64,000 nt of DNA from the NCBI GenBank assembly GCA_965197585.1, contig OZ240215.1, forward strand, positions 2,272,001-2,336,000, given 5' to 3'. Source of the stretch: Dehalococcoidia bacterium (GTDB lineage: Bacteria > Chloroflexota > Dehalococcoidia > Plut-88900). Positions 6,672 to 45,881 of the stretch are shown here, in pieces (the first letter of the stretch is position 1; every line of letters begins with the position of its first letter). The position numbers and the translations under genes are program-made. The notes under the pieces were generated by a model. That model saw nothing but the letters and a program-made list of their open reading frames with translations, was not told where the DNA came from and did not search any database.

Positions 6672-6822
6672 GTTGCGCCCCTTTTCCGTCTACTAAAAAT
6701 TGCCCGGAATGATAGACCTACCCCTATCTTTCGGCAACATTCGAAATTCGACCCAGCCCGGTATTGCGCGCGAACCGCAATTGCATTTATATTGGAATTA
6801 CACTCAGAAAGGAGGTGATCAA

Positions 6823-6867
6823 TTGGATATTGATGATAGACGGACTTGTGAGGTGTCTGTAACGTAA
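6823..6867 (+). CDS. Putative 14-aa small peptide (MDIDDRRTCEVSVT)
   Basis: Near-perfect SD AGAAAGGAGGTGAT before TTG at 6823; upstream TTGCGC-N18-TATATT promoter-like pair. Confidence 0.35.
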   Translation: MDIDDRRTCEVSVT

Positions 6868-7019
6868 ACGGTTTGACACGTAGGGGGCGTCCCCCTGGGT
6901 TCCGTTTGCGGAATCCGTGCAGACGCCGGGCCCCGAAGCTCCCGGGTTGTCCACCGGGACGGCCATAGGCCGAAGTGCTTCGGGGCTTTCTCTTTCCCCC
7001 ACTTCCCCACCCCCCACAA

Positions 7020-7934: not shown

Positions 7935-8199
7935 GGCTCCTCCCTCCCAAAGGCTATCCCGCCCCCATACTTTTGCACAACCCTCCCCCCATCCACCCCC
8001 TCCATCATTCCGGCCGCCGAGAGCCAGAATCCATCCCCATCCCCTTCTACCCAATACTGAACTAGAGGCAGAGGTTGGCGCAGAAGCGCCAACCTCTGCC
8101 TCTGTTCTTATCTCCCCCTCTCCCTTAGGGCCTTCAAGGGAGAGGGGGACAAAGGGGGTGAGGGTTCCTCGGTGGGGTTGGGGCGGTGTCTCCCCAAAA

Positions 8200-8243
8200 G
8201 TGACACGAACCCCTTGACTAAAGCAAAACATCTGTACTATATT
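8200..8243 (+). promoter_or_regulatory. Sigma70-type promoter with LexA-like box (element A)
   Basis: TTGACT(8214)-N18-TATATT(8238); AAAAC-ATCT-GTACT at 8225-8238; same layout as at 27713-27757 and 33307-33351. Confidence 0.6.
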
Positions 8244-8249
8244 GCTCAC

Positions 8250-9147
8250 CAGGCCCGACTCCCCAACGTCGGCCCTATCCAAGGAAAGGATCAGGACTCC
8301 CATGAGTCGCACCAGCCTACATACGCCCCGTCGTAACCGAGCGGTATGGGACCGCTCGGCCACCGACACGCGCCTCCTCACCTACCCCTTTCCACCCACC
8401 GTCCCCCTACACTTCCCCCACTTCAAGCGCTGCCCCAGGGCCCAACGCCTGCGCCCCGGCAGCGATCAACCACTGTTCCGTTCCCAGCATGGAAGGTTCC
8501 CGGACAAAAAACGGCTTGCCCTTTCCAAGGGCTCCTGCCAAGTGCGCGCTGCACTCAACCGGCGCACCACCCTCGCCCCCTCGGGCGACGCCCACGAGCA
8601 CGGCGTCAAGTTGCTCACCAGGGCCATCGTGCCCAGAGACTCCACCGTCGTTGCCTTCGGAGAGGCCATCCCACACAGCGGCGGCAGAGAGTCCACGCCC
8701 CCATATCTCCGTATGGCCGGGCACTTCTGGTGGTCGAGACTGCCCCACACCGAGACTATCTCGCGTCTCCTCCACGTCCTCTCAGAAGCACGGGGCTGTC
8801 GCAAAGCCGGCGTCGATGTGGAACATCCGCGGTCGCGGACATCACCCATCGGTACAGGCGTCGCCGTCTTCCTGCGCAACCGTCCGGGACCTTCCATCCC
8901 CCCCTCCTCCCCTTTTCTCCGTCTTTCCTGCGGAGGCAGGAATCCATCCCCGGAAGGGCAGGGGCCCCGCTCCTCGGGACGTACCCTCCCCTACCCCTCC
9001 CTCCCACTTGTCCACTTCCCCAGTAGGGACGACCGGCCAGTCGCCCAGGGTGTGGACGCCCCGAATGGGGTGTCCACACCCCTCCCCCGACCCAAGAAAG
9101 GAACCACCCACTAGCCCACACCCACACACCCTTCCCCCACAACTGAA
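8250..9147 (+). ncRNA. Candidate large structured ncRNA, copy A (divergent, REPs inserted in the 3' tail)
   Basis: Long-range helix 8489-8505 with 8882-8897, many hairpins, tail CCCCACAACTGAA at 9135-9147; no credible protein. Confidence 0.5.
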
Positions 9148-25711: not shown

Positions 25712-26989
25712 CTAGGGCCGGACGTGACCGCGGCCCAGAATTATCCACTTGTAGGAAGTCATCTCCCGGAGCCCCATCGGGCCCCGAGCGTGCATCTTCT
25801 GCGTGCTGATCCCCACCTCCGCCCCGAGGCCGAACTGGCCGCCGTCAGTGAAGCGGGTGCTGGCATTTACAAATACAGCCGCCGCGTCCACCTCGTCGAG
25901 AAATCTCTGGGCCGCCGAGTAGTCCTCGGTTATTATCGCCTCTGAATGCCCCGACCCATAGGTCTCTACGTGGTTCAGGGCCTCGTCCAGCCCATCGACA
26001 ACTTTGACCGAAGCGACCAGGGCAAGAAACTCCGTACCCCAGTCGGATTCTGTTGCGGGGACTGACCGGGCCTCGGGCACGCTCTGGAGCAGGTCGAGGG
26101 CCCTTTCGTCGCACCGTATCTCTACGCCCTTCTCGCTCCAGGCGCGGGCGATTCGAGGTAAGTATTCGTGGGCGACGGCTGAGTGCACGATGAGGGTGTC
26201 CAGGGCGTTGCAGGTGGAGGGGCGTTGTACCTTGGCATTGTAGGCTATGGCCACCGCACTGTCCAGATTGGCCGACTTGTCCACATACGTGTGGCACACC
26301 CCCACCCCACCCTCGACAACCGGCATCGAAGCATTCTCACCTACGTAGCGTATGAACTGCTCACTGCCCCTGGGCACCAGCAGATCGATCAGCCCCTTCA
26401 TGCCGAGCATCTCGCCGACCAGGGACCTGTCAGTCGACTCGACGAACTGAACAGCCTCCCCCGGCCCCCCGGCCTCCACGAGGCTTTCCCTCACGATTGA
26501 GGAGAGGATTAGGTTAGACCTGATGGCCTCCTTGCCGCCCCTCAGCAGCACCGCGTTCCCCGACTTGAGACACAGGCACGATATGTCTATGGTGACATTC
26601 GGGCGGCTTTCATATATTGCCCCGATCAGACCCAATGGCACTCGCCTCTTCCCGACCTGCAGCCCATTGGGCAGCGTCCTCATGTCAAAGGTCTCACCGA
26701 CAGGGTCGGGCAGCACGGCAATGCCCTCAACGTCCGCAGCGAGAGCTTGAATCCGCTCGGGCGTAAGCAAAAGCCTGTCCAAAAGGGACTCGGACAGCCC
26801 GGTCGCGACACCCGTCTCGCAGTCCTGACGGTTGGCCGAGACAATATCCTCCTGCTTTTCGAGGAGGGCTCGCGCTATGTTCCTCAGGGCCCGGTCCTTC
26901 ACCGCACCGCTCGCCCGACCCAACTCCCGCCCCGCCCCCCGAGCCGCCAAAGCCTGCACCCTAAGGTCTTGTTTAACACTCGTAGTCAT
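25712..26989 (-). CDS. proA: Gamma-glutamyl phosphate reductase
   Basis: VPLGLIGAIYESRPNVT, CNALDTL, NASTRFTDG, QKMHARGPMGL. Confidence 0.97.
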   Translation of the reverse strand: MTTSVKQDLRVQALAARGAGRELGRASGAVKDRALRNIARALLEKQEDIVSANRQDCETGVATGLSESLLDRLLLTPERIQALAADVEGIAVLPDPVGETFDMRTLPNGLQVGKRRVPLGLIGAIYESRPNVTIDISCLCLKSGNAVLLRGGKEAIRSNLILSSIVRESLVEAGGPGEAVQFVESTDRSLVGEMLGMKGLIDLLVPRGSEQFIRYVGENASMPVVEGGVGVCHTYVDKSANLDSAVAIAYNAKVQRPSTCNALDTLIVHSAVAHEYLPRIARAWSEKGVEIRCDERALDLLQSVPEARSVPATESDWGTEFLALVASVKVVDGLDEALNHVETYGSGHSEAIITEDYSAAQRFLDEVDAAAVFVNASTRFTDGGQFGLGAEVGISTQKMHARGPMGLREMTSYKWIILGRGHVRP

Positions 26990-27065
26990 TGCTCTCCTAT
27001 TATCAGGACTTGACCGCCGAGGGGCAAGAACGTGTACTCGTTCGGTAGATTAGTGACACACCGGG

Positions 27066-27706
27066 TTTTATTCAGTTGTGGGGTTTTGGTTTCCGTTTTG
27101 TCTGTTGGGAGGAGGTTGGCGATGGAAGACGCCCATTTGGCAGAGCTGCTTGTACGTGGACTTGCAGCCAGTATGCCCTGATGCTAGATGGTATACACGG
27201 ACAATTCTCGGGCCAGACGTCCGGCAGAGGCTCCTTATGGGGGCTGTATGCCCGTGGGGACACGTCGGGGCCAGGGATCTAGCTGTGCGAGGCCCCACAG
27301 CCTAACTAATAGTGTCCAAGTTCGCCGGAAAAGGACAGGAGCGAATATCCTCCGGGCACCCCCGCGCCGCAGCGCCAGTCTCCAGCAATGCGGCCCGACG
27401 TTCGAGACGGTTCTCCATGGGGGTTAGGCGGTCCGCGGAGCGTATGCTCTGGTCACCCTTGATGCAATCTCCCGTACAGGGAGCGGGGTGGGAGCGTGAA
27501 GGCCAGGGCGTCTTTCCATCGCCTGGGGATCAGGGAAGGGGGCACGGGACCCGTGGGATGAGGAGATGGCGTCGGTCGCTTGTGCCGCGGGCCTGCGCGA
27601 GGGCCGTTGGGATGGGCTTGGACGTTGAGTCCTCTGGTGGGTCGAGTGTGGGCTTCCCTAGTTTTTAGTTCCTCCTTAAGGTAGTTGGGTTAGGTAGTCT
27701 AGACCT
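27066..27706 (-). ncRNA. Candidate large structured ncRNA, copy B
   Basis: About 200 nt of leader clearly homologous to copy C; helix 27523-27506 with 27134-27118; conserved tail. Confidence 0.6.
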
Positions 27707-27712
27707 GGCTAC

Positions 27713-27757
27713 AATATAGAACATAAGTACTTATAATGTCAAGGGGGTGATGTCACC
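27713..27757 (-). promoter_or_regulatory. Sigma70-type promoter with LexA-like box (element B)
   Basis: TTGACA(27742)-N18-TATATT; AGAAC-ATAA-GTACT at 27718-27731. Confidence 0.65.
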
Positions 27758-27774
27758 CCTCTATGTGAACGGGA

Positions 27775-27966
27775 TCAAACGGCCCGACCCAACGTAAATC
27801 TCTCTCCGAAGGCGTCTCCTATGACGGGTTGGAATAGCTGACGACTAGCCAGACCTAAGCAACTCCCCTTCAAACCACCTCTTCGCACCCTCCTAACCCA
27901 CCTCCTCCCCACCCCCCGAGCCGCCAAAGCCTGCGCCCTAAGGTCTTGTTTAACGCTGGTAGTCAT
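27775..27966 (-). pseudogene. Duplicated 5' fragment of proA
   Basis: 27912-27966 matches 26935-26989 with 3 mismatches; translates MTTSVKQDLRAQALAARG. Confidence 0.85.
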
Positions 27967-33239: not shown

Positions 33240-33306
33240 ATTGACAATTATACATCCCCTCCCCACTTCCGTAGGTACGACCGGCCGGTCGCCTTCCTCG
33301 ATAGGA

Positions 33307-33351
33307 GTGACACCAACCCCCTTGACCTTAGATGAACATTCGTGCTAATCT
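33307..33351 (+). promoter_or_regulatory. Sigma70-type promoter with LexA-like box (element C)
   Basis: TTGACC(33322)-N18-TAATCT(33346); TGAAC-ATTC-GTGCT at 33333-33346. Confidence 0.6.
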
Positions 33352-33357
33352 CCTCAC

Positions 33358-34026
33358 CGTTCGAACACCAACCTAACTATCTCAAGGAGGAACCAAAAAC
33401 CCAGGGAAGCCCACCCGACCCATCCGAGGACTCAACGTCCAAGCCCATCCCAATGGCCCTCCCGCGGCCTGCGGCTCAAGCAAACGCCGCCATCTCCTCA
33501 TCCCATCGGGTCCCGTGCCCCTTCCCTGACCCCCAGGCGATGGAAAGACACTCTGGTTCGTTAAGTTCCATGTGAAGCTCCTTACGGAGAAGCCGCTCCT
33601 TCGAGCGGAATAGCGGTCGGATAGGCCCGGCGCCGAGGCCCTCTCGGTACACCGTCCGCTTAATCAAGCCGGGAGCCGGTGGTCTACGCGCTCCGGGTCG
33701 CACCGGCAAACTTGAACACACTACGCCTGCAGAGGCCCGGCATCGGACGCTGGACGGACCTCCTTGCCGCCCTATAGCGGTGCAGCCAACCCTCGGAGTC
33801 GGGCTCGGACCTGCTGGCCCTGAAGGTCCCTGCCCATGTCCAGCGTATGCAGGGCCACAGGCCGCAGCAGCGGCAGGCGGCTTTAGTCCGCCGTAGTCGG
33901 GCCGGCGCCCTCACCCCGGGGCGTCGGAACACCCGAAGCACATGAACGGGGACAGCGTCCAGCCAGTGTCTTCCATCGCCAAACCCTTCCAAATAAGAAC
34001 CAAAATCCAACCCACAACCGAATAAA
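33358..34026 (+). ncRNA. Candidate large structured ncRNA, copy C
   Basis: Leader homologous to copy B; helix 33536-33556 with 33963-33980; tail CCCACAACCGAATAAA at 34011-34026. Confidence 0.6.
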
Positions 34027-34172
34027 GGCCCTTGCCTGCCCCTGACGTGCCGGACTAGTACATTATGTTGCCTAATTGCCTGGAAAATGATACTATGTTC
34101 GTGCCTGAAGTGAAGGTTTTCTACGCTTCACTTCAGTTACCTTGACCCGTCCGTCAAGACCTCGTTTCCCAC

Positions 34173-42417: not shown

Positions 42418-42535
42418 CCCAAAATGGCCAATTCTGCCCTTGATTCACCAGATGGAGGTAATCCGCCAACATGCTAGAATCAACCCCCTCCGAGTGCACA
42501 CTGGGTAGAGAGGTCTCGCACGTTAAGATTTGGAA

Positions 42536-44557
42536 ATGAAAGCGGATATCTCAATTTCGACGCTGAATTCTGCCGACGCGGATTCTGTTGACCAACTTAT
42601 GAAGCGTAATAGCAATACGCTTGGCTTCCTTCCTTTAGTTGTTATTGAGGATCACCTCAACAAGAGGTCGGTATTGGGAGCCAAGGATTTGGACGGCCAA
42701 CTGCTTGGTTACCTTTTATACGCGGCCTATCCAAACCGTTTCCGCATTGCCCATCTCTGCGTCTCGCGTGAGACCAGGGGTCAGGGCCTTGCGGGGAGGC
42801 TAATAGAGGCTCTGATTGAGACCGCAACAACACAGACGATTATCACACTTAGCTGCCGCAATGATTTCGAGGCCCATAAAATGTGGCCAAAGCTCGGGTT
42901 CGCCGCATTGTACGAGAAGGCTGGTAGATCTAAGGAAGGCCTTCCCCTAACCGTGTGGCGTCGTATTATTGCGCTCGATAATCAACTTGGCCTCTTTCAG
43001 GCAAATGTATCAGATGAGGTACTAGATGTCATAATCGACGCCCAGATATTTTTCGACTTCGATGCCCCTCTCAGCGAGCATGCACAGCCTTCCAAAACAC
43101 TGCTGTCAGACTTCTTTATCGATTCGATCAATCTTTGGATAACCGATGAGTTGTTAACCGAAATCAGTCGTAACGACAACCCGGAGGGCCGTGACAATCG
43201 CAGATCGAGGGCCTACGAGTTTCCTGAAGTGAAGTATGATCCTCAGTACTTGGAGTACTTTGTGGAGTTGTTGAAGGGCATTCTACCGAATAGTAATCCA
43301 AGTCAGATGTCAGACATATATCATCTTGCTAAGGCAGCATCCTCCGATGTTCATGTCTTCATTACCAGGGATAATCTCTTATTGAACAAGGCCGAACAAA
43401 TCCACGCGTTGGTAAACGTGGAAGTCATTTCTCCAACTGCCTTGATTCTTAGGGCACGCGAACTTTCCGAGAAGCAAACCCCAGTGCCTGATCGAGTTGC
43501 CGGACTTGGCTTGGAATGGAGACACCTTAACTCGAGTGACTTCACCGCATTCCCATTCCAAAGATTCCTTCTTCAAGGAGAAAAACTAAATCAATTACGA
43601 CAAAGATTGGGTTATCTGTTAGCCAGTCAATCGTCCGATGAATTGGAAGTGCTTTGGGCTCAGAATGAGCCGGTTGCCTTTCGGATTTTGAAAGCGGATG
43701 GGTCAAACTCCCTTATTTTGTCATTGGGTAGAGTTGAAAACTCTAGAGATCAGTCGCTGCTTGGAGGCTTCCTAGTTTCGGATGTCGTTTACAGGGCGAT
43801 GCGCAAAGGTTTGAGCATGGTTAAGGTTAAGGCCGATGCACTCCCACGAAACCTAATCCACAACCTTTCCTATATGGGTTTTATTGAGTGCAACGGTGAC
43901 TTTTTGAGATTTTGCTTTGCCCAGTATTTGGATCGTGAGGATGCTCTAACCGAAATCGGCAATTTGGCTCCTGCAGCTGTGGAATCCTACCAAAGTATTT
44001 CGGCTTCTGAGTTTGACTGCCATTGCTCGCCCCTATTGTCCAACGTGAATCAGAATTGCTCCCTGGTGCCGATTCGGCAGAGATATGCACTTAACCTCTT
44101 CGATAGAGCATTGTCAGCACAAGGCTTATTCGGGGGCGACGAGAACCTACTTATGCGATGGAGCAACATTTACTATCGAAGAAACAATCGTCAGAAAATG
44201 TTTCAGGCACCTGGACGCATCCTCTGGTATGTAAGTGGAACCAGGAAAGCCATTGTAGCTGTATCACATCTTGACGAAGTCGTAATAGATATCCCAAAAG
44301 AGCTCTTTCGTAGGTTTAGAAAAATTGGCACGTTAGCATGGGAGGATCTTTACGAGCTCTGTGATGGTGATGTCTCTAAAAGGCTTATGGCTTTGCGGTT
44401 TTCTCACACCTTTCCATTACAGACAGAGGTTCCTCTAAAAGAAATAAAGAGGGTGTTTAATGACGATGGATTTGGCGTATCAGTACAAGGGCCAATCAGG
44501 GTGCCTTGCAGCAGTCTCAGAAGGCTATATCAACTAGGATATCCTGGGAGACAATGA
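42536..44557 (+). CDS. Multidomain GNAT acetyltransferase-PIN protein with PUA/ASCH-like C-terminus
   Basis: N-terminal GNAT (HLCVS..RGQGLAG); PIN-like IIDAQ..TDELLTE..SDIYHLA..FITRD; C-terminal ILWYVS; low GC. Confidence 0.75.
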   Translation: MKADISISTLNSADADSVDQLMKRNSNTLGFLPLVVIEDHLNKRSVLGAKDLDGQLLGYLLYAAYPNRFRIAHLCVSRETRGQGLAGRLIEALIETATTQTIITLSCRNDFEAHKMWPKLGFAALYEKAGRSKEGLPLTVWRRIIALDNQLGLFQANVSDEVLDVIIDAQIFFDFDAPLSEHAQPSKTLLSDFFIDSINLWITDELLTEISRNDNPEGRDNRRSRAYEFPEVKYDPQYLEYFVELLKGILPNSNPSQMSDIYHLAKAASSDVHVFITRDNLLLNKAEQIHALVNVEVISPTALILRARELSEKQTPVPDRVAGLGLEWRHLNSSDFTAFPFQRFLLQGEKLNQLRQRLGYLLASQSSDELEVLWAQNEPVAFRILKADGSNSLILSLGRVENSRDQSLLGGFLVSDVVYRAMRKGLSMVKVKADALPRNLIHNLSYMGFIECNGDFLRFCFAQYLDREDALTEIGNLAPAAVESYQSISASEFDCHCSPLLSNVNQNCSLVPIRQRYALNLFDRALSAQGLFGGDENLLMRWSNIYYRRNNRQKMFQAPGRILWYVSGTRKAIVAVSHLDEVVIDIPKELFRRFRKIGTLAWEDLYELCDGDVSKRLMALRFSHTFPLQTEVPLKEIKRVFNDDGFGVSVQGPIRVPCSSLRRLYQLGYPGRQ

Positions 44558-45021
44558 ATTCACTATCAAAGTCTCTTTTGCTGTCAGTAAAACCGCAATA
44601 TTCTGAATTGATTTTCGCTGGGCGCAAGAGGGCTGAATTAAGGCGAACTAGCCCACCGGATATGGAGAGTCGTGAGGCGTTTATTTATGTCACTAGTCCT
44701 GTGATGCAGCTTACCGGCGGATTCCATGTCGACGAAGTACTAGCCGGAACTCCAGAAGAGGTATGGAGCAAGGTGGCTCACTACGCTGGCGTTCCTAAGT
44801 CAGAATTCGATGCATATTACGCGGGGCGGTCAGTTGCCTATGCTCTAAAGATCACTGAAGTATGGCAATATGAGCATCCGGTCAGGTTGGCTGAATTGAG
44901 GGACAGGTTCGATAACTTCGTGGTTCCCCAGTCCTGGCGATATGTGACGCCTGAAGAACAAACTTCTTTCAAGGAAATGCAGCGAATCTCTTGTGCTTCA
45001 AACCATTACAGGGGACTGTGA
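44554..45021 (+). CDS. ASCH domain protein
   Basis: LLLSVKPQYSELIFAGRKRAELRR, IYVTSP, PQSWRY; ATGA overlap with upstream gene. Confidence 0.85.
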   Translation: MNSLSKSLLLSVKPQYSELIFAGRKRAELRRTSPPDMESREAFIYVTSPVMQLTGGFHVDEVLAGTPEEVWSKVAHYAGVPKSEFDAYYAGRSVAYALKITEVWQYEHPVRLAELRDRFDNFVVPQSWRYVTPEEQTSFKEMQRISCASNHYRGL

Positions 45022-45881
45022 ATGGAGCCCAAATTCTCCAATATCTTCGTAATCGAATACCCCCGATTCAGAGCGTAGAAGTGAATCCCTTCCACCCCGT
45101 TAGCCTTCAAATCGGCAATTTGAGCAGTGGCCAACTCGATTCCCAGCTCCCGCACCGCATTATCATCCTCTCCGAGCTTGTCCAGCCGACCATCAATCTC
45201 CCGGGGGATGGCTGAGCCACACAGCGCCGTGAACCGGCGTATCTGAGCACCGGTCAGGATCGGTAACACCCCGGCAATCACAGGCACTCCTATCCCCGAC
45301 CCCCGCGCCATCTCCAAAAACCGGTAGAAGTCCGAGTTATCGAAGAACAACTGGGTTATCAGGTACTCAGCTCCCCCGTCCACCTTGCGCTTCACGTACT
45401 CTATGTCCGTGCGAAGGTCCGGGGCCTCCGGATGGCCTTCCGGGTAGCACGCCGCAGCGAGACCGAAGTCGAAGTTGCTGCGTATGTGCCTGAGCAGGTC
45501 GGTCGCGTGTGGAAACCCGTTCTCAACGGGCGAGAAAGCATCCTGCCCCCGAGGCGGATCGCCGCGCAGTGCAATCACGTTCTCGATACCCCCGGCCTCG
45601 TATCGAGCCAGAACTTGGTGGACCTCGTCCCGAGACTGGGCAGAGCAGGTAACGTGTGCCATGACCAGCAGCCGCTCCTCCTCCTTGATCCGCAGCGCCA
45701 GCTCCTCAGTCATGGTCTTCGTCGATCCACCCGCCCCGTAAGTCATCGACACGAAGTCGGGCGAGAAGCGTTTGAGGTTCTTAATTGTCCTGTAGAGAGA
45801 GGTCACTCCGGCGGGTGTCTTGGGAGGGAAGAACTCGAACGAGAGGGTGGGTCGGGTGGAGAGGATGTCGATAATCTTCAT
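45006..45881 (-). CDS. metF: Methylenetetrahydrofolate reductase
   Basis: SFEFFPPKT, TYGAGGS, ALRGDPP, YPEGHP, ITQLFF, HFYALN. Confidence 0.96.
   Translation of the reverse strand: MKIIDILSTRPTLSFEFFPPKTPAGVTSLYRTIKNLKRFSPDFVSMTYGAGGSTKTMTEELALRIKEEERLLVMAHVTCSAQSRDEVHQVLARYEAGGIENVIALRGDPPRGQDAFSPVENGFPHATDLLRHIRSNFDFGLAAACYPEGHPEAPDLRTDIEYVKRKVDGGAEYLITQLFFDNSDFYRFLEMARGSGIGVPVIAGVLPILTGAQIRRFTALCGSAIPREIDGRLDKLGEDDNAVRELGIELATAQIADLKANGVEGIHFYALNRGYSITKILENLGSIHSPL

Follow-up and report, generated by a model that had tools for sequence, protein, structure and literature searches.

Repeated elements of a Dehalococcoidia genome are probably promoter-targeting, non-autonomous transposons transcribed into a structured non-coding RNA

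Introduction

Several described systems resemble, each in part, the repeated elements studied here, three of which, called copies A, B and C, lie in a 64,000-nt stretch of the genome of a Dehalococcoidia bacterium (contig OZ240215.1 of assembly GCA_965197585.1, positions 2,272,001 to 2,336,000; hereafter the window, whose numbering is used unless a genome position is given). MITEs, or miniature inverted-repeat transposable elements, usually measure under about 0.6 kb, and insertion sequences of the IS3/IS481 group have TGT ends and variable direct repeats of 4-15 bp. Large structured non-coding RNAs (ncRNAs) of Rfam, such as OLE, GOLLD, ROOL, HEARO and raiA, are found in wide taxa, mostly in one or few copies. 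In rRNA operons, a strong stable-RNA promoter and a conserved untranslated leader are combined with a long-range processing stem that flanks a large structured RNA. The nearest described case that we found is QMITE1 of Coxiella burnetii, which is reported as a non-autonomous repeat of 300-400 bp, with about 50 copies and 2-3-nt direct repeats, which often overlaps open reading frames (ORFs), carries sigma-70 promoters, is transcribed and gives rise to small RNAs, and the copies of which encode basic peptides according to a section title (Wachter et al., 2018; PMC5896051).

A preliminary description of the window proposed that A, B and C are three copies of a new large ncRNA. The present work shows that the family is larger, with about 57 copies of the type of B and C, called leader-type, and about 14 copies of the type of A, and it leads us to another reading: B and C probably belong to a promoter-carrying, promoter-targeting family of non-autonomous transposons that is transcribed into a structured ncRNA. 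What stands of the earlier proposal for B and C is that they have their own promoter, are non-coding, fold with excess stability on one strand only, are matched by contigs of RNA libraries and match no Rfam family. What does not stand is an ordinary three-member family of paralogous host ncRNAs, as we find some 70 dispersed mobile units with probable inverted repeats, target duplications, presence/absence among relatives and probable module exchange.

Compared with QMITE1, the elements are alike in being non-autonomous, in their number of about 50 copies per genome and in being a source of ncRNAs, and the basic peptides of QMITE1 parallel the basic ORF of the A type. They differ from QMITE1 by their size (720-880 bp), by duplications of 7-12 bp, by a conserved leader of about 170 nt and a helix that closes a replaceable core, by insertion in one orientation at a set distance from a -35 box and by a sister lineage that preserves a reading frame. 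With MITEs derived from DDE insertion sequences they share TG...CA ends, probable imperfect inverted repeats, variable duplications and a resident multi-copy insertion sequence, which has an rve transposase and a repeat similar to the right end of the elements; in contrast with such MITEs, no autonomous two-ended parent was found, the left end is unmatched, and the interior has nothing in common with the insertion sequence and would be a transcription unit of its own. Their size between the ends, 707-853 nt, also exceeds the MITE convention. They resemble OLE, GOLLD, ROOL, HEARO and raiA in being 600-700 nt long, heavily paired and non-coding, and differ from these in being confined to one genus, present in about 57 copies, mobile and without Rfam match. 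The likeness to rRNA operon leaders is one of working only: the sequences are unrelated, and an antitermination motif was not identified.

Results

Copies B and C belong to a dispersed family confined to one genus

The genome under study (G000; other G numbers designate relatives) is a single contig of 3.43 Mb. It was compared with eight genomes of its genus, with three further genera of its family and with 29 genomes from its class. The features of C and of its right flank are as follows.

33307-34026, plus strand: copy C, leader-type (L1) element of subfamily S6; homology with paralogues is limited to 33307-34025/34026
33307-33313, plus strand: GTGACAC box
33322-33327, plus strand: -35 box, TTGACC
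33346-33351, plus strand: -10 box, TAATCT
33385-33535, plus strand: conserved leader of about 150-170 nt, beginning with the invariant AAGGAGGA and comprising an AGGGAAG...CTTCCCT stem and a variable hairpin
33536-33549, plus strand: 5' strand of the long-range helix P1, GGCGATGGAAAGAC
33550-33967, plus strand: subfamily-specific core, including CCGGCAAACTTGAACAC at 33703-33719
33968-33980, plus strand: 3' strand of P1, GTCTTCCATCGCC
34012-34022, plus strand: tail, CCACAACCGAA
34027-34096, plus strand: degenerate right-end module (...CCGGACTAGTACA) and abutting host promoter
34068-34073 and 34091-34096, plus strand: -35 (TTGCCT) and -10 (TACTAT) boxes of the host promoter

Copy B and its surroundings read on the opposite strand.

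27033-27781, minus strand: copy B, L1 element of subfamily S1; homology with paralogues is limited to 27033-27777
27781-27750, minus strand: left inverted repeat, TGATCCCGTTCACATAGAGGGGTGACAT
ending at 27033, minus strand: right end, ...GTGTCACTAATCTACCGAACGAGTACA
27896-27966, minus strand: upstream duplicate, which repeats the first 71 nt of the 425-codon ORF lying downstream; a 63-codon ORF remnant starts with it
26918-26989, minus strand: downstream counterpart of this duplicate (71-72 nt), with which the intact ORF 25712-26989 begins

The leader that had been noticed in both B and C is real, as a blastn search with 176 nt of C (33385-33560) finds it at 57 loci of its own genome with 74-95% identity. 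Other shared traits of the preliminary description were recovered as well: the AGGGAAG/CTTCCCT stem appears in single-sequence minimum free energy folds of B and of C alike, a long-range helix is formed in C (33536-33549 with 33968-33980) and in A (8488-8505 with 8882-8898), the motif CCGGCRAACTTGRACAC lies at 33703-33719 in C and at 27328-27312 in B, and the tail CCACAACYGAA is found in A, B and C. The copies split according to the core, which follows an invariant AGGCGATGG, into subfamilies of 12, 12, 10, 7, 6, 6, 2, 1 and 1 members, the main subfamilies being six. A profile built on S6 matches window positions 33336-34037; it aligns along its whole length with S3 and S5 and partly with S1, so that the cores, far from being unrelated, are distant relatives of one another. 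Leader-type elements measure 0.72-0.88 kb, and the two lineages together (about 57 x 0.7 kb and about 14 x 0.95 kb) make up about 1.5% of the 3.4-Mb genome. Sequence searches found the leader type in all eight genomes of the genus and in none of the three other genera of the family or the 29 genomes of the class; this comparison by blastn, which the preliminary description had proposed for the leader, thus gives a genus-confined family (8/8 against 0/32 in more distant genomes). The sequencing runs that contain family sequence carry the label sponge metagenome. A literature search, supplementary files excluded, found no published description of the family.

Other small repeats accompany the elements. 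A palindromic repeat, CGTAGG..CGACCGGCCGGTCGCC, present at window positions 33270-33298, recurs beside and inside elements and also occurs in tails or flanks of copies c02, c25, c32 and c54. A mini-hairpin of 22 nt (YGGAACRTCCGCCTMWGGAGGA type) interrupts the leader at three different positions (for example in loci L003 and L022, alignment columns 169-190) and is also found in tails, between CCACAA and CTGAA, single or in tandem; it looks like a separate tiny unit, either mobile or of the repetitive extragenic palindrome (REP) kind. A 37-nt G+C-rich palindrome, TCTCCCCCTCTCCCTTAGGGCCTTCAAGGGAGAGGGGG, located at 8113-8149 and in at least 20 other places of G000 with 95-100% identity, often lies within a larger repeated module directly upstream of element promoters.

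Ends, empty sites and duplications

The left end TGATCCCGTTCACATAGAGGGGTGACAT stands at the start of 16 copies and the right end ...GTGTCACTAATCTACCGAACGAGTACA closes 25-30 copies; the two are 707-853 nt apart in 12 of the 16 cases. The termini are TG...CA and appear to be imperfect inverted repeats, each about 25 bp long; for the match of the left end to the right end in reverse complement, 109 of 5000 shuffles (the number used in each end-resemblance test) scored as high.

Copy c06 gives the clearest view of a site before and after. It is present in G000, G002 and G005, and its site is empty in G003 and G001, where the flanks overlap by 12 nt, GTACA(G/T)GCTTTT; in G000, GTACATGCTTTT is found at both ends of an 878-nt insert, and the empty sites read ...GGCTGTACAGGCTTTTGACAC in G003 and ...ACCGTGCAGGTTTTTGACAC in G001. 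Similarly, c40 is absent from G003 with a 7-nt flank overlap, GCATTTG. C itself is present in G002 and G005 (97-98% identity) and absent from G003 and G001, which have 114-115 nt where G000 has 796 nt, both flanks being conserved. B is present in G002 and absent from G003 and G005. The two 71-nt copies that flank it (27896-27966 and 26918-26989) are 90% identical, and G003 has this stretch once, with both flanks contiguous; the B site differs from that of G003 by 907 nt plus the 71-nt duplication, and from that of G005 by about 3 kb of unrelated DNA. In the 15 copies with two ends, the flanks of the same copy align with each other at a mean score of 14.4, compared with 10.8 for flanks of other copies, and this own-flank similarity is above the 99th percentile of mismatched pairs in 3/15 copies and above the 90th in 7/15.

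Variation among relatives also concerns the interior of the elements. At the c06 and c40 sites of G005 and G002 (loci L169, L170 and L182), flanks and leader match those of G000 and the core differs from it in length and sequence, which suggests that cores may be exchanged between copies. Core, leader and end modules appear to be swapped among copies. Elsewhere in the window, a stretch of about 2.6 kb (42421-45028) has a syntenic counterpart of 75 nt in the genome G005 and of 860 nt in G002.

These results bear on the possibility that the elements are large structured ncRNAs of the host, a paralogous family serving the cell in some way of its own, the copies of which would arise by duplication and the mobility of which would be incidental. 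We regard this as unlikely. Such a family would not be expected to occupy a site in some close relatives and to be missing from it in others, with target duplications, nor to show different cores at the same occupied sites across genomes, nor paralogues as close as B and the copy at G000:3361685-3362430, which are 96% identical over 747 nt; the confinement of the family to one genus points in the same direction, as does the divergence of A, whose counterparts at that site in G002 and G005 are 78-88% identical when their flanks are 93-96% identical. The properties that speak in favour of a host ncRNA are those of the promoter and of the fold, presented below.

Elements are inserted just upstream of -35 boxes

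Both clean empty sites contain a promoter at the point of insertion. In the c06 site of G003 and G001 it is composed of a -35 box TTGACA, 17 nt and TATAAT, in the c40 site of G003 of TTGGAC, 17 nt and TATAAT, and the 12-bp and 7-bp duplications overlie the -35 box of this downstream promoter. The right-end rule that we tested was ACA-N5-TTG. A TTG is found at +6 to +8 past the right end in 17/30 copies, and TTGACA, with at most one mismatch, at +6 to +11 in 11/30 copies compared with 0/420 control offsets. The degenerate right end of C sits 5 nt before the host -35 box TTGCCT, and this host promoter, ATTATGTTGCC...TACTAT, also stands at the G003 and G001 sites, which do not have C.

The orientation of the 57 copies relative to genes is divergent for 29, tandem and co-oriented for 14, tandem and anti-oriented for nine, and convergent for five, on an intergenic background of 347 divergent, 889 tandem and 271 convergent intervals, taken from a crude map of ORFs of at least 150 codons. 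The downstream gene is thus co-oriented with the element in 43/57 copies, and on the own strand of C a simple scan found no intrinsic terminator, two facts that a cis-regulatory 5' leader of the downstream gene, of the riboswitch or T-box type, would account for. This explanation is hardly credible. We reject it because the downstream genes are unrelated: the 20 downstream proteins that were scanned belong to different families, including MMPL, MFS, arginase, Lgt, RibF and ZnuA. Moreover, downstream genes retain their own promoter between the element and the start codon, and close relatives have these genes with no element before them. As a separate observation on the neighbourhood, at least 11 element neighbours are members of one expanded Amidohydro_2 (PF04909) family, with 24-67% mutual identity (for example at loci L099, L100, L101, L104 and L106).

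Promoter, fold and transcripts of leader-type elements

The common promoter layout reported for the three copies, a GTGACAC box, a -35 TTGAC, a 17-18-nt spacer and a -10 TAnnnT, was verified, and in the alignment of the 57 copies a GTGACA(C/T) box, TTGAC and TAnnnT are kept around a variable spacer. A strict pattern of this layout occurs 67 times in the genome, 50 times before a leader and about nine times before A-type units, and one GTGACAC-type promoter precedes a tRNA-Met gene. The simple scan that was used for promoters and terminators did not call the promoter of C because its -10 box, TAATCT, scores below the rule of the scan. Two more GTGACAC-box promoter units, at G000:C1:1119956 and 2874405 (minus strand), have a different start that is similar between them, CCGACTCGGGCCCGCA.AAGGGCCGG..., and may constitute another small RNA family.

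Folding was compared with 20 shuffles per strand. The sense strand of C folds at -269.1 kcal/mol compared with -241.9 ± 7.6 for shuffles (z = -3.57), none of the 20 shuffles being as stable, whereas the antisense strand gives z = +0.10, with 12/20 shuffles as stable. For B, z is -2.94 on the sense strand (0/20 shuffles as stable) and -1.37 on the antisense strand. Both strands of P1 are found in 57/57 leader-type copies, and a P1 strand pairs with its own partner at a mean of -34.0 kcal/mol, compared with -28.1 for strands from other subfamilies. The variable extension of P1 co-changes by subfamily (GGAAGGTCC/GGACCTTCC, GGAAAGACGCCC/GGGCGTCTTCC, GGAAGACGC/GCGTCTT(T/C)C), and the nine core pairs in 57 copies comprise 487 Watson-Crick pairs, 20 G-U pairs on the sense strand and six other cells. 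In the leader stem, the lengths of the G run and of the C run are equal in 38 of the 53 resolvable copies; by classes, 31 copies are short/short and 11 long/long (42 concordant) against eight discordant ones. A consensus fold of the 28 S6 copies has 125 pairs, 97.9% of which are paired, compared with 34-45% when partners are slid.

As for transcription, contigs from RNA libraries of two studies match the core of C (33427-33875, 90-99% alike), and also B; DNA carry-over is possible in such contigs. One contig of 163 nt, from run X2, covers 33984-34074 and crosses the end of the tail, which is too little for a claim of read-through. In runs X1-X3 many bins beside C and B are devoid of cover; uncovered parts do not count as evidence, and these gaps were not used as a contrast.

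The elements, judged by eye in the preliminary description to lack the signatures of RNase P, tmRNA, SRP, 6S, group I introns and riboswitches, gave no usable match in a covariance-model search against Rfam 15: the whole window was scanned at gathering score, with no match on A, B or C, and C and B were additionally searched at E up to 10, the best match being Chloroflexi-1, with 22 bits for a cut-off of 80 and on the wrong strand. The sole match of the window at gathering score lies elsewhere, at 6800-6994 (plus strand), and is to Ms_IGR-5 (RF02471; 54.8 bits, cut-off 45), described for Actinobacteria, the present genome being a Dehalococcoidia metagenome-assembled genome.

A conserved promoter of the stable-RNA type, a P1 helix present in every copy with class-specific compensation and variants compatible with G-U pairing, an excess of stability on the sense strand only, and contigs from RNA libraries are what would be expected of a host ncRNA, which, for want of an Rfam match, would then be new. 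These same data are to be compared with a third possibility, that the elements are purely selfish or neutral repeats in which the promoter is a relic of the parent insertion sequence, the helices are inverted repeats at the DNA level, such as the ends of a nested MITE, and the RNA is a by-product without selected structure. The terminal inverted repeats, the target duplications and the existence of subfamilies agree with it, and P1 can be read as internal inverted repeats of 13-18 bp around a replaceable core. Nevertheless, DNA palindromes should stabilize both strands, and only the sense strand exceeds shuffles; of the 26 departures from Watson-Crick pairing in P1, 20 read G-U on the sense strand, for which the opposite strand would have A-C; and the -35 and -10 boxes are kept in the 57-copy alignment while the spacer varies. 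We therefore hold purely selfish repeats to be quite unlikely, and retain, as the probable reading, a mobile element that is transcribed into a structured RNA.

Coding potential and the A-type sister family

No transposase gene and no open frame are found inside leader-type copies. The 57 cores have stops in every frame, typically one to seven per frame, leader indels have lengths that are not multiples of three, and among 587 pairs of leader-type paralogues the aligned bases are distributed over the three relative frames as 34%, 33% and 33%. The long ORFs that can be drawn in B and C with permissive starts sit in different frames between copies, and a coding reading based on them was discarded; they reflect strand composition, about 40% C and 17% T as measured on A-type copies. 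B and C types are non-coding. The preliminary statement that no ORF is conserved between copies is thus right for B and C, given their stops and random frame offsets, and wrong for A, in which a 270-codon frame is kept.

8190-9147, plus strand: copy A; promoter module (8190-8243) and tail as in the leader type, a different 5' region and an S2-related core
8302-9114, plus strand: ORF of 270 codons, ATG at 8302, preceded by AAGGAAAGG
8488-8505, plus strand: 5' strand of the long-range helix, CATGGAAGGTTCCCGGAC, pairing with 8882-8898
8882-8898, plus strand: 3' strand of the long-range helix, GTCCGGGACCTTCCATC

The promoter module common to A and to the leader type is about 50 nt long. With its long ORF kept open, A is a member of a sister family and cannot be counted simply as another copy of the ncRNA of B and C. 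A-type units all bear AAGGAG-TCCC-ATGAGTCGCA, a Shine-Dalgarno sequence followed by the start, and A paralogues carry AAGGAGTCCC-ATG ahead of the frame.

These features raise the possibility that the family is a protein-coding one, with A encoding a basic, disordered protein of 220-450 residues and B and C being decayed or non-AUG versions. In its favour, the 20-nt start motif AAGGAGTCCC-ATG occurs 5-13 times per genome in 9/9 genomes and never in the reversed control; frame 0 is stop-free over the first 600 nt in 35/41 A-type copies, including 22/27 from other genomes, with total stops of 15, 239 and 120 in frames 0, 1 and 2; 89% of the aligned bases of 268 A-type pairs stay in frame; the position of the stop codon is conserved (...KGTAH); and 289 predicted proteins of public assemblies match the A ORF, none of them with a name or a Pfam domain. 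For B and C, the stops in every frame and the random offsets refute it. For A itself, substitutions show no codon-position bias (7232, 7680 and 7334 at the three positions), the share of synonymous changes is 0.308 compared with 0.27 expected by chance, the ORF matches no family of Pfam or NCBIfam, its AlphaFold2 model has no secondary structure (mean predicted local distance difference test score, pLDDT, 41; predicted template modelling score, pTM, 0.11), and the conserved 'peptides' coincide with the P1 strands and the palindromic repeat. On the whole a protein-coding family is highly improbable. The lengths of A-type gaps (29 of 72 distinct gaps are multiples of three) are uninformative because of internal tandem repeats, and the frame-offset test was used instead. 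The CGTAGG..CGACCGGCCGGTCGCC repeat is present inside the A ORF as well (about 9025-9045), where it reads as the peptide 'RDDRPVAQG'. In conclusion, the A-type frame is kept open and its residues are not conserved, which may correspond to a disordered basic protein or to a need for translation of the RNA itself.

A candidate mobilizer

The genome houses an insertion sequence of 1.06-1.1 kb, which we take to be IS481-like, in about 20 copies that are 89-99.8% identical, most of them 96-99.8%. Its ORF of 320 residues has rve, rve_2 and rve_3 domains, and its left repeat, TGTAAGTGTTAGGTAATTCGTTGACAGA, is similar to the right end of the elements read in reverse complement (8/5000 shuffles as high).

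G000:C1:2679997-2681094 (L002:393-1490): a copy of this insertion sequence, with ends TGTAAGTG...CATCCACA
G000:C1:659332-660650: insertion sequence nested in copy c05; inverted repeats of its own, rve-domain ORF of 423 residues

Two other candidates were dismissed. A 422-residue 'transposase' beside several elements matches no family and is an antisense frame of the 20-copy insertion sequence, the antisense strand of which carries a spurious ORF of 360-420 codons. The rve ORF located between the left end and the promoter of c05, considered as an autonomous form of the element, belongs to the nested insertion sequence listed above, which is single-copy and has its own ends.

Discussion

In this work we describe a family of elements that combine the ends, empty sites and duplications of transposons with a promoter and a folded, non-coding interior. 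We propose the following model. The leader-type elements would be non-autonomous and genus-specific, and a resident DDE transposase of the insertion-sequence type would move them in trans. The -35 boxes would be chosen for the resemblance of TTGACA to the TGACA of the transposase's own repeats. Insertion would be oriented, the right end landing 5 nt upstream of the host -35 hexamer, and the target duplication of 7-12 bp would rebuild this hexamer, so that the downstream gene would keep its own promoter and gain a strong co-directional one upstream. From the element promoter, an RNA of about 650 nt would be made, composed of the leader of about 170 nt, P1, a paired core of 320-520 nt and an unstructured C/A-rich tail; the fold of this RNA would be under selection, and transcription may extend into the downstream gene.

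Several observations weigh against this model. Ends are recognizable in only 16 (left) and 25-30 (right) of the 57 copies, the remainder carrying other upstream repeats. At the B and C sites, relatives differ by replacement or rearrangement rather than by clean insertion, which shows that the copies are absent there. The lengths of the flanking duplications vary: 7 nt, 12 nt, possibly about 29 nt for copy c03, and 71 nt for B. The 'empty' c03 site of G003 and G005 already bears a right-end-like module and is therefore not counted as a clean empty site. The repeat of the resident insertion sequence is unlike the left end of the elements (4325/5000 shuffles as high), and no autonomous element with both ends was found. 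On the RNA side, the evidence of transcription consists of contigs, which give no ends, strand or level, and the 14 compensatory pairs of the S6 consensus, compared with 3-8 in slid controls, belong to a structure picked by its own scoring program. Covariation in the leader is weak, with a double change in 3 of 32 predicted pairs over 30 leaders, and this scarcity in the conserved part of the element also argues against a host ncRNA. Finally, a MAFFT alignment of 46 copies across subfamilies gave only 54 pairs, with compensatory pairs not above slid controls, and its consensus structure was set aside; this result and the weak covariation of the leader are the ones that purely selfish repeats would predict. 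We nevertheless favour promoter-targeting transposons with a structured transcript as the probable nature of B and C.

A bolder reading, which we consider possible but doubtful, is that the RNA is more than a by-product and the element a self-spreading cassette made of a promoter and a structured leader, the leader and the P1-closed core letting the transcript escape termination or decay and proceed into the targeted gene. If this were true, a single mobile RNA module would have changed the wiring of some 40-60 promoters in the genus, and the A type would reach the same end by the translation of an open frame, the sequence of which changes freely. In a weaker form of the cassette reading, the approximately 57 RNAs would make up a new class: abundant, large structured RNAs that act in trans and that transposition has spread.

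Promoter-bearing, transcribed MITE-like repeats were already known, QMITE1 being an example. New here are the insertion in one orientation at a fixed position relative to the -35 box, with a duplication that restores the hexamer; a payload that would be a folded RNA of about 650 nt, in which the leader is better conserved than the core and the exchangeable core is bracketed by a helix; and a sister lineage that keeps a frame of 220-450 codons open with no sign of selection on residues. The family also warns against naming multi-copy structured repeats new classes of ncRNA, and against annotating A-type frames as ordinary proteins. Even if it had no regulatory effect, it would provide a clean natural case of the targeting of -35 boxes by a transposon. 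Should the downstream genes respond to the RNA or to the tandem promoter, these elements would form a major and fast-changing regulatory layer in an uncultured, sponge-associated genus of Dehalococcoidia.

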